From positions 165,354,001 through 165,418,000 of the forward strand of contig OZ024743.1 in NCBI GenBank assembly GCA_964016885.1: 64,000 nucleotides of DNA, in the 5' to 3' direction. Positions 1,622-51,740 of the stretch are shown here, piece by piece; the first letter of the stretch is position 1; every line of letters begins with the position of its first letter. The notes beneath the pieces were generated by a model. The model was not told the DNA's origin and did no database searches. It saw only the letters and a list, made by a program, of their open reading frames with translations. A program made the translations under genes and the position numbers. Source of the stretch: Eledone cirrhosa (Eukaryota).

Positions 1622-1662
1622 CGATATTAAACAAATGGAAACTATATTTATAAAACCATATT

Positions 1663-1728
1663 TATTTCATTATACATATTTCAGCGATACCATATTAAAA
1701 ATATGGCATGCCTTCGTCAGATAAAATA
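1663..1728 (-). ncRNA. Type I hammerhead ribozyme, family A pLTR (also 5803-5869 -, 7008-7071 +, 32143-32205 -, 32386-32451 +, 48042-48104 -, 51659-51722 -)
   Basis: tattttat-CTGA(C/A/G/T)GA-agg..long stem II..cct-GAAA-tat(g/a)ta-TA-atgaaata; stem I pairs; 5803 copy has GAGA instead of GAAA. Confidence 0.85.
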
Positions 1729-3392
1729 CAATATATAACCAGTTTTATAAATAATTTTGACGTACCATAAATATAGCGACCATTAAGGTAGGAAGCTGGC
1801 TTGGTAGTGAAGTGTTTATAAATATTTAGTGTTAAGCACAGTTACAAAGAAAGACGGAGAAAAAGAAGAAATGTATGTAAAGAAAAACAGAGAGAAATAG
1901 GGGTGTGAGAAAGAGGGAAGAGGTAAAAAAGAGAGGCAACCGAAGGCAACAGATGAATAATACTAATTCATCATACAAATTGAGAGATTTAAGAGGGAGG
2001 GAGTACGGTAATTATTTAGTTATAGTGTTAAGCACAGTTAGAGAAGAGACGGAGAGAAAGAAACAAAAATGGAGATGAGGAGAAAACAGAGAGAGAGAGA
2101 GAGAGAAAGAGGTGGGAGGAAAAGAAAGAGGGAGAAAAAATAATAATAATTATATAGGGGGTGAAAATCAAGAGAGAAGTAAGAGAGAAACATGAGAGGC
2201 AAAGTCAAAACGACAGATACATAAACTTCATCATATATAAAGAGAGAGGAGAAGAAAGAGCTATATCTAGAGAGGAATGATATAGTTACATCTTTACGTT
2301 ATGTCCTATCAATTTGAATTATCAATTCATATGAACTGGGTAATATAATGTAAATATCAATATTCATGAATGAGACATAGATATATAATGTGTGAAAATA
2401 ATTTTGCTCATAATGACCATATGTTTAGTTTAAAACTCTGAGGTCAATGTACCAAAAACTGAGATAAATCTTCAAAAAATTACCCTATTTATAAAAATAC
2501 GGAGATATATAAGTATATACATACACATGCATATGCACTTTCTGAAAAAAGAAAAGAAAAAGAGAAAGAGAAAGTCATGTCAAGCTCTAGTTGATAATAT
2601 AGACATACATGACTTTACGTGATCAACTCTTTAATTTCTTGTTTCACAAAAAATTTTTTTCTTGTGTTATAAAAGATTTCACTATATATATATATATATA
2701 TACATAAAAAATAAACGATTAGTATTCATGCCCTCACACATATGATCATCGTTCATGTATATAATATTATGCATATCTGTAACATATACAGAACTATACC
2801 TACACATATATATACACATATATGTATATATAAGATATCTGCGTGAGTGTTCTAGCATCTCTATGCACACATACAGGCACATGAACAGATAAAATATACT
2901 CTGTAATCATTCCATATGCATATTAATACATATGGCCTTTGCACAGAGACAACCAGATATCTATATATCAGCACAGAAATATCAAAACGTTAAAATATTT
3001 TCAACACACCCTAGGGCATCTCAGGCCACAACAAACCCAGTATGCTTCATATATTTACCACAGAAATCTATCCTTCCAATTTTCCAGACAATATATTGCC
3101 AAGTTCTTTAGAAGCAATCAGAATCAAAAAGCAAACAAAAACCAAAAATTATTTAACAAAAATCATTTAAAGGATTTAGAAGACCCTGTGGTTCTACGGA
3201 TGCTCTTATATTTAGTATAGAAATTTATCTTGCGTAAAATTTATTTAATACATTGGGAGCATCTACATTTTAGAGTAGTTTAATTACATCATTTGTTTAT
3301 ATTTATGAAGAAGTTTTAAAAGAAAAAGTTGAAGGAATCGAAAGATTTATCGTCAGGTTTCATACATTAATTAAATTTCTTAATTAATTATA

Positions 3393-47980: not shown

Positions 47981-47998
47981 TATATATATATATATATA

Positions 47999-50900
47999 CG
48001 ATATTAAATAAATGGAAACTATATTTATAAAACCATATTTATTTCATTATATATATTTCAGGGATATCATATTAACAATATGCTATGCCTTCCTCAGACA
48101 AAATACAATATAAACAGTTTTATAGATAAATAGATTTGACATACCGTACAACATCGACTTGTATTTGAAAAGTTGAATTGGCAGTGAAAAAATTGTACAC
48201 AGAGAGAAAGAAAGAGAGAAAAAGGAAAGAAAGACAGAAAACGAAGAAAAAAAGAAGAAAAAGAAGAAATGCATGGAACAAAATAGAGAGATGGAAAGAT
48301 AGATAAAGAGAAGAACTTCATGTAAAGAAACAGAGAGAGATATATATAGAGAGAGAGAGGAAATAGAGATAGATATATATATATAGAAAACTAGGTAGTG
48401 GGAACATCCGTTGAGTAAACGTATCAATGATACATTTATTTATTTATTTATTTATTTAGCTCTAGTATTAATGTAAGGGAGATATATGTGGTTAGGAGAG
48501 AAACCAGCTGTTATATATAGAGAAAAATTAAAAATAACCAGACATAGGCGAGGCATAAAAACCCTGTTTTAATGTAGAGGTATTAGTATGTATAAAAACC
48601 AGCCACTATACTGTAAATATCAGTATTCCTGAATGAGACATGTATCCATAATGTGTGAAAAGTAATGATCTTATGTTTAGTTTTTTAAAAAAAATTCATA
48701 TGTTTATGTGATAACTACAAACATCTATGTGAATTTACATGATCAACTCTGCAAACCTTAAGTTCACGGAAAACATTCTCATTGTGCTATAAAAATTTAA
48801 GTATACATATATGTGTATATATATACACACATATATATATAGACTCTATATTACTACTATTGTCTTTACTCTACAAGATTATCTATCAAGCAGAAATAGA
48901 GAGCAGATTTCAATATATTAATAAAAAAATATATATCAGAAACAAAACCAAAAAATAACAATAATAATAATAATAATAAATAATAATAAAATAGAAAACT
49001 AAAAAATATTACGAAAGAATATTACATATTAAAAATATTACATATTAAAAATAAAAATATTAGAAAATACTACAATAATAAAAATAAACCACAAAGATCA
49101 ACCCTTCAAAATTAATTGACAATATATTGCCAAGTTCATTATAAGCATCAGAGTCGAAAAACAGATAAAGCTAAAAATTATTTATCAAATCGCATCTAGC
49201 AAAAATCATTTCAAAAAGTTTAGGATGCCCATTTGGTCTACATGTGTTCTTATATTTAATATAGAAGTTTATCTAGTGTAATGTTTATTCGAAATATTTG
49301 GAGCATCAACTTTTAGGGTAGCTTAATTTTTCATGAAGAATGTTTAAATAAAAATAAAAATAAAAATAAAAAGAATAAAAAGAAGAAATCGAAAGATTTA
49401 TCGGCTAGTTTCCCATATAATTATAAATCAAACTAAATATACTACATTTTAAATTTAAATTTATATTTAAAAGTTGAGTTTAATCTATGTTTGCAGCAAC
49501 TGAATAAATTTGTCCGTAGATTAAGGGAATTTTTAGATTTTAGTATAAAGAATATCTCCTCTGCGCAGAGGTCACATGTCTCAGAGGCTGAATTAAAAGG
49601 AATCCCTCTTGAGACTATATTCCAAGCCGTCGAATATCTAACGTTATCTAGCTTAAGTTGCCAGAGTACGCCTGATAGTGCCGTTGAAGATTTTTTGCTT
49701 GGATCAGTGAAAGAATTCTTGTGGTTATTATAGCGAAGTTTAAATTCCGTCGATGTGGAACCGACGTAGTTAAAAGAATTAGAGTCAGTTTTAACATTAC
49801 AATTGTATACTATATTTTTAACTAAGCAGTTGTTATTTAACGGACATTTAGATCTATCTCTACAGTTACATTTGTTAACTTGTATATTATTTATGCTATT
49901 ATCACTAGGTTTTAAGTTCCTATTATTTATTCTATTAATATTTTGTGCTAAATTTTTGGTGGATGAGTAGGTTAATTTTATAGTATGTCTATTGAAAATT
50001 GAGTGATACCTATGTGTTCTAGGGAAGCGATTATCAAGAGCTTTAAAAAATAGTTTAGCGATGTGGGTTTTAATGTTTAGTGAGAAAGGGGGGGGGGGGG
50101 GGGGGCAAACCAAATTATGTTCCTAGTTCTATTTCTTTTTTGGCCTTTGGAATTATTGTAATGCTTTCTATTATAGTTGTTAAGGTTGTTGCCGTAATTA
50201 AAATAGTTGTTATTTTGTTTAGTTTGTCTATCATTATCTATGTACATAATCTTATCAGTATATCCTGCTCTAGCTAATGCTTCATTGTAGTATTGGGCTT
50301 TTTCGTCGAAAATCTTTCTATTCGACGAGATCCTAGAGATACGTTTTTGAACAGAGTTTACTATAGTGTTTTTGACAGATCTGGGGTGGTTAGAGTTAAA
50401 GTTGACATAGTTTAAGTTTTCATTCAACTTGTGAAAAGGATAGTGAAGACATGTGTTGAGATTTAATGTTATATCTAGGAAATTGACTATTCTATGGTTG
50501 TTCTCAATTTCTATTTTAAGATTAAAGTAATTAAAAAATTGTGTAATGTGTTTACATTTTCTATTTAGTTCAGAGTTATTATTATCAATAAGTAAAAGCA
50601 TGTCATCTCTATATAAACCTCCGGTAGTACCAGGTATTTTCCTATGTAGCGAATTGATTAAAAATAAGCCCACAAGGTCAGTTACCTGAGCTGAGTCGGA
50701 TGATCCCATAGTAATGTCAAAATTGCTATCTCTATCTGCTCTGGTCCATAGTTGGTCATTAAATTCTATCAAAGTTTTCCTAGCCGATAATATAATATGC
50801 ATTTCATTGCTAGTTAGGTCAGTATGTTTGAATGCGTAATTTAGTGCCTTATTTAGTAGATTAGGGGTAATAGAAGAATAATAGTTAGCAATATCAAGTT

Positions 50901-51740
50901 GAATAAACTTATTATTATTGTTATATTTAATTTGCTTAAACCACCAACAACCTCTCCAGTTCCCTTCCACAAGCTCAGGTTAGATAAACAATCCAAGTTC
51001 TTAATTTGCTGTATCACCCTGTCAAGAATGTTTTTGCTTAATTTGCCCAGGTCCGATTTTGATGGTGCGATCAATCTAACTGGCAAGTCATTTTCAAAAT
51101 TCCTCTTGTGATCTTTCATATTGATCTTCGGTTTCCTGGGCACGAAAGGTTGTGTTCTGTTCTCAATTTCCAACTCGTGCATTATACAAGATGCTTCGAC
51201 ATTCATTTTCTCAAGCTCGGCCTTATCTGCTACCTTGTACTTTTTCCTCAGTTCCTTCAGTATGAGGCCATTATACATGTCTTTCTGCACTCCATAGAGG
51301 TTGTTGGTCTTGTCAGATTTCACCAAGATCTTCTCAGTTTTCTCTAAGCTCTCAATATTATCCTTAATGCCTTTCAGATATTCCTGGCCTTTGAAGTTTC
51401 TCTTGAATTTGACCCCTTGTATGATAGAAATTATATCGTTTTCAAAGTCAGATAAAAGTTTGTTAGGGGGTGAATTTCTTTTAGATTTGAAAACTTTGTT
51501 TAAGTCCGAGACATTTTCATTTATATTAGATTTATCAAAGTGGAATGCTCGCCACCTGATTCTCCTTATAAAAGAGTCAGATTTATCTATTAATTGTTTT
51601 ATAAAGTATATATATATACGATATTAATAAATGGAAACTATATTTATAAAACCATATTTATTTCATTATACATATTTCAGGGATACCAAATTAAATTATG
51701 GTATGCCTTCATCAGAAAAATACAATATATAACAGTTTTA
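47999..51740 (-). mobile_element. Hydra-like PLE, family A copy 2, with 3' pLTR and an upstream pLTR
   Basis: Highly similar to 3393-5622; HHRs at 48042 and 51659. Confidence 0.9.
49442..51605 (-). pseudogene. PLE RT + GIY-YIG with frameshifts (~50945 and poly-G 50088-50105), 5' end missing
   Basis: ORFs 50853-51326, 50077-50970, 49442-50113; GLYRDD, CNCRDRSKCPLNNNC. Confidence 0.92.

Follow-up and report, generated by a model that had tools for sequence, protein, structure and literature searches.

RESULTS

Elements carrying hammerhead motifs in the window

The window analyzed here is a 64,000-nucleotide stretch of Eledone cirrhosa DNA (assembly GCA_964016885.1, contig OZ024743.1, positions 165,354,001 to 165,418,000, forward strand). 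Between positions 1622 and 51740, islands set between TA tracts carry hammerhead ribozyme (HHR) motifs. At least four families of Hydra-type PLEs were found among them:

1622-7202, minus: Hydra-type PLE family A, pLTR-ORF-pLTR with a frameshifted RT-GIY-YIG ORF (about 5646-3393), an inverted 5'-truncated copy (6089-7202) and a TA tract at both ends
1659-1732, minus: family A HHR, stem III near-palindromic
5800-5873 minus (GAGA replacing GAAA), 7002-7075 plus, 32137-32210 minus, 32382-32455 plus, 48036-48109 minus, 51655-51726 minus: further family A HHRs
49088-51740, minus: another Hydra-type copy of family A, 85% to the one at 1622-7202, pLTR with an HHR at 51715
8643-11874, plus: Hydra-type PLE of family Q with pLTRs, its frameshifted ORF at about 8900-11072
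11699-11822, plus: family Q HHR, stem II of about 90 nt, palindromic stem III, weak stem I
27357-28990, plus: Hydra-type EN C terminus, 3' UTR and HHR of family K, U4C core at 28778
44365 minus and 45736 plus: inverted family K pair
34180-36600, plus: Hydra-type PLE family G, internal inversion, U3-A8 HHR at 36510
38920-40220: copy related to family G, HHR at 40131

Hydra and Neptune types were assigned by the motifs defined in PMC8557442. Families A, Q, G and K show RWR/RWK (RWK-like), DKT, a CxCX5C linker (mutated in the family A copy at 3393, intact in that at 49442), CxxC and CxH, lack CCHH and end in a GIY-YIG-type EN, family K being represented by the EN end only. By these sequence motifs the four families fall within the Hydra clade (Craig et al. 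2021, PMC8557442), which they also resemble in the pLTR HHR and the (TA)n target; the earlier note had taken both traits as established, and both hold for A, Q, G and K. The window copies differ from described Hydra-clade PLEs in being frameshifted and in having tails of 89 and 108 nt (families A and Q), versus 30 to 40 bp described for PLEs. Family Q was also considered as a core-deleted ribozyme; this was rejected, as genomic copies have a normal core 90 nt upstream.

A second group of carriers has Neptune-type, other Zn-linker or more generally PLE-like features:

24230-27356, plus: Neptune-type PLE with DKG, CX4CxxC linker and GIY-YIG with CCHH; 5'-truncated, 3' end cut right at the L' motif
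12484-13900, minus: 3' part of Neptune-type PLE family L', HHR-like motif (core 12678, U3-A8, GCAA replacing GAAA)
31589 minus (GGAA) and 31640 plus: further L' copies
19255-21500, minus: 3' part of Neptune-type PLE family X, U3-A8 HHR (core 19402)
47872, plus: second family X copy
17404-17443, plus: minimal HHR of family D, at the 3' terminus of a CA-rich UTR of PLE-like type; a Neptune-like ORF end was seen by eye near 15780-15900
40706-40748, plus: U3-A8 HHR of family L, after a PLE-like 3' region
11885-12358, unstranded: family B 3' ends as a fold-back pair, two HHRs (cores 12054 minus, 12176 plus)

The DKG, CX2-5CxxC linker and CCHH within GIY-YIG at 24230-26250 are those of Neptune-type PLEs with minimal HHRs (Cervera and de la Pena 2014, PMC4209133), which likewise have a palindromic helix III, and are also compatible with Nematis. 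Family X, the GAAA sister of L', was tied to a Neptune-type PLE by tblastn only. A 4147-bp tandem PLE has B2, a sister of family B, as its pLTR. Elsewhere in the genome there is also a third PLE type of the Zn-linker kind. Among 3,865 genomic matches of L', 99 of the first 100 have GCAA; unlike the Neptune-type PLEs of PMC4209133, this autonomous family, judged by its copies, has spread with GCAA in place of the GAAA core.

The remaining motifs lie in islands where we saw no PLE ORF:

7851-8471, minus: ORF-less family R, 472- to 488-bp tandem unit; HHR core deleted here, intact with a long stem II in most genomic copies
22975-23775, plus: ORF-less family E, a tandem whose unit measures 398 bp here and whose HHRs are at 23141 and 23539
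17852 minus, 37519 plus, 37820 plus (GAAA deleted), 46458 minus: other family E copies
38056-38732, plus: ORF-less family H, 542-bp unit, HHR 38472-38556 with an 8-bp stem I and a 7-bp stem III
41295-42250, plus: ORF-less family I, 514- to 519-bp unit, HHR 41919-41998 with a 7-bp stem I
42393-44032, minus: ORF-less family J, 5.1 head-to-tail units of 319/320 bp, one U3-A8 HHR each (42600, 42920, 43239, 43559, 43878)
22689-22893, plus: J-related copy, degenerate core CAGAGGA at 22851
15638-15716, plus: family C HHR, stem II (48 nt) showing compensatory changes, stem III palindromic
18817-18876, plus: family N HHR, palindromic stem III
33783-33979, unstranded: family F short fold-back at stem I, two HHRs (33911 minus, 33916 plus)
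45843-45960, plus: family T fragment, 3' half of the HHR only; longer copies elsewhere are complete U3-A8 HHRs with a long stem II

The motifs are type I hammerheads

Curation of 1622-51740 gave 40 type I hammerhead motifs, to which 17 family labels were assigned, close to the roughly 39 motifs and 15 families counted by the earlier note; about 8 more that were broken or only half present were left out. The core is unbroken in 32 motifs, that is, CUGANGA, the U3-A8 variant UUGANAA/UUGANGA or the U4C variant CCGANGA together with GAAA and UH, and altered or broken in 8. Both core variants have been described as natural (PMC3088659), and U3-A8 covariation was previously reported in Schistosoma (PMC4209133).

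An automatic three-stem descriptor gave 22 matches at a score of at least 9 and 21 at a score of at least 10. In 30 dinucleotide shuffles (500-nt blocks) the means were 0.53 and 0.33 and the maximum was 2, so shuffling did not reproduce the density; an earlier version of the descriptor gave 22 matches versus 0.6 in 40 shuffles. If the motifs were chance matches in AT-rich repeats, such controls should score alike. A relaxed UUGAAAA core does produce false matches in AT-rich satellites (L092, L098), and for this reason the strict descriptor omits it and X and L' were entered by hand. However, single exact patterns match 10,162 to 40,322 times in the genome and reversed patterns 0 to 2 times, and stems covary. 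Chance thus has a vanishingly small probability, and we conclude from these comparisons that the motifs are real hammerhead sequences.

Covariation across three helices was found in families E and C; the other families rest on the descriptor. In family E (12 rows), 99% of cells are paired, against 17 to 47% in slid controls, with double changes in 6 of 10 pairs; in family C (7 rows), 99% are paired, with double changes in 2 pairs. Both alignments draw on few lineages, and related sequences can beat a shuffle control. Unconstrained folding gave the full three-stem form for some motifs only, the J, L', N and G monomers folding otherwise, and self-cofolding of short monomers gave no clear dimeric hammerhead, except in part for A.

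Distribution of the motifs and repeat annotation

A whole motif is present in 22 of the 32 islands of at least 120 nt. The claim that almost every island carries one therefore stands as a majority, really about two-thirds. The 10 motif-free islands include a LINE RT fragment, a tRNA-like SINE, PLE ORF pieces and the core-deleted family R copy, and no HHR was found in islands U (32810-33470) and V (a 546-bp tandem, 46788-47636) or at 13909-14911. A (TA)5+ run lies within 350 nt downstream of 36 of the 40 motifs, against 34% of random non-TA positions, and upstream of 17 of the 40. Docking of all carriers in (TA)n, as the earlier note had it, is accordingly borne out for most, although about 5 of the 36 downstream runs are unit-internal (AT)5 rather than a flanking tract. 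Positions 51741-64000 contain neither a (TA)5+ run nor a descriptor match.

Rfam annotation misses these elements, in keeping with the suggestion that repeat annotation would underrate them. Of 294 rows for the whole window, the best 150 include no hammerhead family. Within 38300-44050, the HH9 model scored 16 to 20 bits on the five J copies, below its gathering threshold of 52, and no hammerhead match was obtained for H, I, G or L. The remaining ribozyme matches among those listed were dismissed as hairpin-type false hits.

Closed ORF-less units and truncated PLEs

Autonomous PLEs and ORF-less ribozyme-bearing elements are both present and TA-docked, as had been noted. Every apparently ORF-less island could in principle be a 5'-truncated pLTR of an autonomous PLE, with no independent parasites. 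For about half of the islands this is what we found: by sequence, those of A, Q, G, K, D, X, L' and L are truncated autonomous pLTRs, and those of B probably are too. C, N, F and T showed neither a closed unit nor a linked ORF at the loci examined. J, E, H, I and R refute the truncation explanation as a general one, since they alone form closed, ORF-less, head-to-tail units of 319 to 542 bp (H and I as partial tandems only), and one E-type insertion holds 31 units of 466 bp with an inverted end. As a full account, truncation is very unlikely, and the designation of ORF-less islands as parasites is kept for these five families.

The closed units have a longest ATG-ORF of 28 to 78 aa, a GC content of 33 to 42% and a predicted circular fold with z from -2.8 to -5.3 (versus 25 shuffles, both strands). 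J, E, H, I and R fit the description of non-LTR retrozymes, as every unit has a single type I HHR and a GC content below 50%. BLAST of the ORF-less units against the autonomous pLTRs of the window gave no similarity beyond TA runs, so linking flanks to PLE sequences, as the earlier note proposed, tied no ORF-less family to a named helper. Target-site duplications were sought in the J, E, H, I and R inserts and are unreadable inside (TA)n.

No RNA sequencing run was among those listed as containing J. J is covered by contigs of four sequencing runs of unknown kind, and the tandem joint was seen in two other organisms; neither result bears on expression.

Insertion ends

Each of 14 families has two fixed 3' ends, 37 to 119 nt apart and both downstream of the predicted cleavage site; insertion ends fall 13 to 275 nt downstream of it. 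The two modes per family, which were derived from the same data with many loci chosen as best matches of a family, include 237 of 268 TA-defined ends. One end of each kind was found in all 36 inverted insertions, 8 of which belong to the ORF-less families J, H and R. The distance between the ends, the tail, is 89 nt in A and 108 nt in Q (Hydra-type); 38 nt in L', 65 nt in X and 51 nt in B (Zn-linker types); and 85 nt in H, 92 nt in I, 111 nt in R, 110 nt in E and 37 nt in J (ORF-less). In 11 of the 12 families that show read-through, the near end runs on into TA/AT letters, a hint of microhomology.

In vitro, the spacing of two RT start sites sets the length of the tail, which is unique to PLEs (PMC11167929). 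Since the ORF-less inserts share this two-end pattern, they were likely copied by PLE enzymes; their ends bear a PLE-specific tail, which is more direct evidence than co-occurrence or pLTR similarity. Alternatively, LINE machinery (RTE, CR1) or RNA-to-RNA replication, rather than PLEs, would mobilize these units. LINEs are indeed abundant at 52830-61183, but that region has (TTA)n ends and neither (TA)n nor HHRs, and PLEs alone are described as leaving a two-end tail together with an inverted copy. We regard this alternative as extremely improbable.

Is the ribozyme used?

PLEs might also insert ORF-less units from uncleaved read-through RNA, the hammerheads being mostly inactive passengers and the arrays growing at the DNA level. 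Every insertion end maps downstream of the predicted cut, which argues that cleaved linear monomers are not the template. HHR mutants of PAc still insert in vitro (PMC11167929), and L' has spread with an altered core. The units of arrays are also nonuniform: the variant order A-B-A-B-B in J and the variants scattered among the 31 units of the E-type array misfit copying of one uniform circle. Against passengers, stems changed in a compensatory way between E subfamilies, and in C, while the core stayed invariant, which points to selection on the fold; stems I and III of H and I are long and stable; and coral, mussel and axolotl retrozymes cleave and form circles. Inactive passengers thus seem unlikely, if a serious alternative, and the ribozyme likely matters for the ORF-less units while being dispensable for at least one autonomous family.

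Genome-wide abundance

Motif density is 0.42 per kb in the window and 0.135 per kb in the genome on average, about a threefold difference, and the window is not a unique hotspot, since one of 59 random 10-kb stretches had 14 matches. The PLE/ribozyme ecosystem is genome-wide. With only three exact patterns, 76,959 intact cores are recovered, and random sampling leads to an estimate of about 4x10^5 motifs (about 135 per Mb), above the largest count that we found in the literature (axolotl, 126,247). Stem III is exactly palindromic in 51 of 86 random-genome matches.

For cephalopods, our literature search yielded the giant squid Rfam count (235 hammerheads) and Hydra-1_Obim of Octopus bimaculoides, listed in the PMC8557442 supplement with a (TA)n target and pLTR not found, and no other hammerheads or retrozymes; Repbase, Dfam and the supplements of PMC7229834 and the 2026 preprint, which may hold cephalopod families, were outside the search.

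DISCUSSION

Taken together, the sequence evidence makes it quite probable that the motifs are type I hammerheads in the pLTRs of Hydra- and Neptune-type PLEs and in ORF-less units of 319 to 542 bp that likely act as non-LTR retrozymes, copied by PLEs into (TA)n. The proposed ecosystem of PLE helpers and parasites is supported, with the correction that helpers are not of the Hydra clade alone. By analogy with published work, tandem copies would be transcribed as multimers, and the ribozyme, often as a dimer via palindromic stem III, would cut unit-length RNA that is then circularized. The insertion geometry suggests that the PLE RT-GIY-YIG protein nicks both strands of the TA tract, that RT starts twice within an uncleaved multimer or circle, at a separate internal site for each strand, and that the two cDNAs may join into a partial tandem and an inverted copy with a family-specific tail. 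An insertion leaves TA on both sides, so families would pile up in TA-rich regions.

The carriers belong to known kinds, namely Hydra- and Neptune-type PLE pLTRs and non-LTR-retrozyme-like units; the insertion geometry is the new evidence. The metazoan non-LTR retrozymes of Cervera and de la Pena (2020, PMC7229834) and of Li, Clavereau and Pollet (bioRxiv 10.64898/2026.07.22.740005) are low-GC tandem repeats whose units measure a few hundred bp, lack an ORF, carry a single type I HHR and are predicted to form a self-paired circle; they are proposed to be nonautonomous PLE derivatives. In the bioRxiv preprint, only 1 of 9 Xenopus retrozyme dimers cleaved. The Eledone units differ in being TA-targeted, in reaching 542 bp, and in their U3-A8 cores, long stems II and lack of local pLTR similarity. 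Those papers argue from co-occurrence and pLTR similarity, whereas here the inserts themselves carry the PLE two-end tail and inverted copy, as read from sequence. In the PAc Poseidon element of Anolis (Frangieh et al. 2024, PMC11167929), too, the tail is set by two internal RT starts downstream of the HHR; cutting and extension take place on both target strands, and HHR cleavage is not needed. In contrast to PAc, tails here are family-specific (37 to 119 nt), each of the 36 inverted inserts combines one start with the other, and the TA/AT run-on hints at microhomology, of which PAc showed none in vitro.

More tentatively, and with somewhat less than even confidence, we propose that this genome holds the richest hammerhead complement yet described, with dozens of families; that its ORF-less retrozymes are PLE-mobilized circles whose tail length records the helper (about 85 to 110 nt for Hydra-type, which would place H, I, R and E with A and Q, and about 37 to 65 nt for Zn-linker types, which would place J with L', X and B); and that a dimeric PLE enzyme primes both strands from two internal sites. 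The same proposal holds that part of the octopus "unclassified SINE" annotation consists of retrozymes; a 2026 Octopus vulgaris repeat annotation, in the part seen, lists 893 active families under that name without mention of ribozymes.

Which enzyme mobilizes animal retrozymes becomes testable in one genome. So does the role of the PLE hammerhead, given ends downstream of the cut site, an altered L' core and compensated ORF-less cores. The scale bears on cephalopod genomics, with 235 squid hammerheads by Rfam against the intact cores that three patterns recover here, and, if the proposal is true, part of what is annotated as SINEs in octopus would be retrozymes.

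Hammerhead motifs in the islands between TA tracts

We searched for type I hammerhead ribozyme (HHR) motifs with a descriptor comprising the core, GAAA, UH and three stems, in which a long stem II was accepted only if it folded. Between positions 1622 and 51740, 22 matches scored ≥9 and 21 scored ≥10, compared with 0.53 and 0.33 in the shuffle control proposed by an earlier note (30 block-wise dinucleotide shuffles). With homologous, truncated and variant copies found by BLAST and by eye, the catalogue reached 40 motifs, sorted into families with 17 labels; the core was unbroken in 32. 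The total is in line with the note's estimate of about 39 motifs from about 15 families in 50 kb. The note had also placed an HHR in almost every island; a whole motif was present in 22 of the 32, and the statement failed for the remaining 10. It had all HHRs in elements docked in (TA)n; a TA run lay ≤350 nt downstream of 36 of the 40 motifs (about five of these runs being internal (AT)5), compared with 34% of random positions. The window, at G000:C4:165354001-165418000, had 218 (TA)5+ runs covering 4,583 bases, the last at 51607. No descriptor match was found in the final 12 kb of the window, which was TA-free and occupied by LINE RT elements. In keeping with the note's view that repeat annotation would understate them, Rfam hammerhead scores were just 16-20 bits versus a threshold of 52. 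The observed abundance of HHR motifs is real and well counted.

Other features of the window:
52830-61183: two LINE RT elements (1140-aa and 794-aa frames) with (TTA)n array ends, without (TA)n or HHR
36830-37160: tRNA-like SINE (Rfam tRNA 28.9 bits, 37091-37148), TA-docked in several loci too
46788-47636: family V, a TA-docked 546-bp tandem; by eye, a short near-terminal motif is common to V, H and I

HHRs were sought in V and in the TA-docked repeats at 32810-33470 and 13909-14911, and none was found.

Structural support

The covariation expected by the note was found in the two families aligned, each represented by few lineages. In family E (12 distinct rows), 99.2% of cells were paired, compared with 17-47% in slid controls, and 6 of 10 pairs showed double changes; in family C (7 rows), 99% were paired and two stem II pairs covaried. 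In the UUGANAA core, U3-A8 replaces C3-G8 and the pairing is preserved, whereas CCGANGA represented U4C; both are described as natural variants in passages of PMC3088659 and PMC4209133. Unconstrained monomer folding recovered the three-stem form only partly. A palindromic stem III is a mark of dimeric hammerheads; among 86 random-genome matches, stem III was exactly palindromic in 51 and stem II exceeded 40 nt in 26. In family Q (11785-11822), a 6-bp pairing of the stem II 3' arm with the stem I 3' strand competes with stem I. This pairing, present in 25 of 25 copies viewed, is a possible off-state.

Autonomous carriers

For families A, Q, G and K the location was the 3' end of Penelope-like retrotransposons (PLEs) showing RWR/RWK, DKT, CxCX5C, CxxC and CxH but no CCHH, the Hydra motif set as defined in a portion of PMC8557442, where the supplement lists one Hydra family from octopus. 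The top named homologues of the main ORF were from Argonauta hians and Octopus bimaculoides, which makes an octopod host likely. L' and X appear from sequence to be part of Neptune-type PLEs, and D and L look similar to Neptune-type carriers by eye. B2, the sister family of B, was the terminal repeat (pLTR) of a tandem PLE 4,147 bp long, whose linker was CX4CxxC. At G000:C1:14.38-14.39 Mb (L224), this PLE, possibly Nematis-like, had near-identical tandem copies, an Asn-rich insert and a long RT-EN frame in two pieces. Neptune-type 3' UTRs contained tandem repeats of 123-187 bp (12743-12988, 19758-20132 and 27036-27281); these bear CCAAT-like boxes and are possibly internal promoters.

L', an autonomous family, had a U3-A8 core and a stem I of A-U pairs only. 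GCAA replaced GAAA in 99 of 100 among the matches listed (first 100 of 3,865), and GAAA was retained in its sister X. Since mutagenesis has established that A13 is required for hammerhead cleavage, L' likely spread without an active ribozyme.

ORF-less units and insertion ends

As the note had proposed, HHRs occurred both in autonomous PLEs (A, Q, G, K, L' and X) and in ORF-less closed units (J, E, R, I and H). In these units the longest ATG-ORF was 28-78 aa and the circular fold z was -2.8 to -5.3; they had no matches to pLTRs of the window. In DNA searches, H, Q, J, I and R yielded 1,332-2,008 candidates apiece, and scoring covered 40 of them.

End positions are distances between the predicted cleavage site and the first TA tract. 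Two clear modes were found in 14 of the 23 families examined; the other nine, with few copies or a single mode, were excluded. Of the TA-defined ends, 237 of 268 lay ≤12 nt from a mode, and none of the 14 families had ends at the predicted cleavage site.

Tail lengths of the 14 families, with sizes of ORF-less closed units
A: 89
Q: 108
L': 38
X: 65
B: 51
J: 37; unit 319-322 bp
H: 85; unit 542 bp
I: 92; unit 514-519 bp
R: 111; unit 472-488 bp
E: 110; unit 398 bp in the window, ~420-490 elsewhere
C: 119
T: 80
F: 72
One family absent from the window: 91

Inverted pairs had the short end on one copy and the long end on the other in 36 of 36 cases (p=3x10^-11 versus 50:50; two pairs from one locus); for J, H and R, this was 8 of 8. 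The same layout was seen in an E-type array at G000:C1:5.738-5.752 Mb (L225-L226), one TA-flanked insertion of 31 466-bp units plus an inverted end. Its 20 variable columns were scattered over units, and such mixing suggests that arrays may grow partly at the DNA level or via mixed templates. Read-through was available in 12 families, and in 11 of them TA/AT letters continued beyond the short end.

In the anole PLE, two internal RT starts mark the limits of the tail, each strand of the target is cut and extended, and insertion persists in hammerhead mutants (Frangieh et al., PMC11167929). The ORF-less units, with their two-end tail, therefore bear a scar specific to PLEs. Part of a 2026 preprint proposes retrozymes of PLE origin in vertebrates from co-occurrence and pLTR similarity, with one of nine dimers active.

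In most copies of F and T, truncation or fold-back occurred at the HHR itself (33783-33979 and 45843-45960; L136, L137, L187, L204, L221 and others elsewhere), F at stem I and T in the 3' arm of its long stem II (45 of 62 contexts). These breakpoints suggest that RT strongly tends to stop or switch at the HHR structure.

Genome-wide scale

The genome sample, 590 kb from 21 large contigs, comprised 59 10-kb stretches placed at round coordinates; 86 matches in it scored ≥10 versus 6.3 in shuffles. The net density of 1.35 per 10 kb corresponds to ~4.0x10^5 per 3.0-Gb genome, which may include haplotype duplicates (bootstrap 2.6-5.9x10^5; 3.4x10^5 when the one array-rich stretch is left out). Matches correlated with TA content (Spearman 0.53); flanking DNA had 20 in 200 kb, and the density of the window was ~3x the genome mean.

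Exact patterns were counted in the whole genome for E-type (40,322; reversed control 2), F (26,475; control 0; stem I partly missing in many), B2 (10,162; control 0), L' (3,865; control 0) and one variant of J (182). For the first four together the sample predicted 86,321 and the actual count was 80,824; the extrapolation is therefore calibrated. Counts in excerpts of published work, obtained with other descriptors than ours, are >6,000 in coral, ~5,000 in mussel and 126,247 in axolotl (PMC7229834), ~9,000 minimal motifs in Xenopus (PMC4209133) and 235 by Rfam in giant squid (PMC6962438).

At least 10 further families occurred outside the window at random loci (L084, L088, L097, L110, L134, L149, L151 and L153), several with a stem II of 60-100 nt and a palindromic stem III. 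The 165 matches formed 58 clusters, part of them chance singletons.

Proposed mobilization

What we observed directly were the motifs themselves, covarying stems in two families, the elements that carry them, docking at TA and the two-end rule. In the mechanism we propose, HHR-bearing elements would be transcribed, the HHR would cleave the element RNA, circles would form, a PLE dimer would prime, and particular PLE helpers may serve particular ORF-less units. Tail length as a possible fingerprint of helper type is based on five families, two of them Hydra-type and three with a Zn-linker. The constituent elements are of already known kinds; the interest lies in their scale, in the core-altered family L' and in direct insertion-site evidence for retrozyme mobilization by PLEs.
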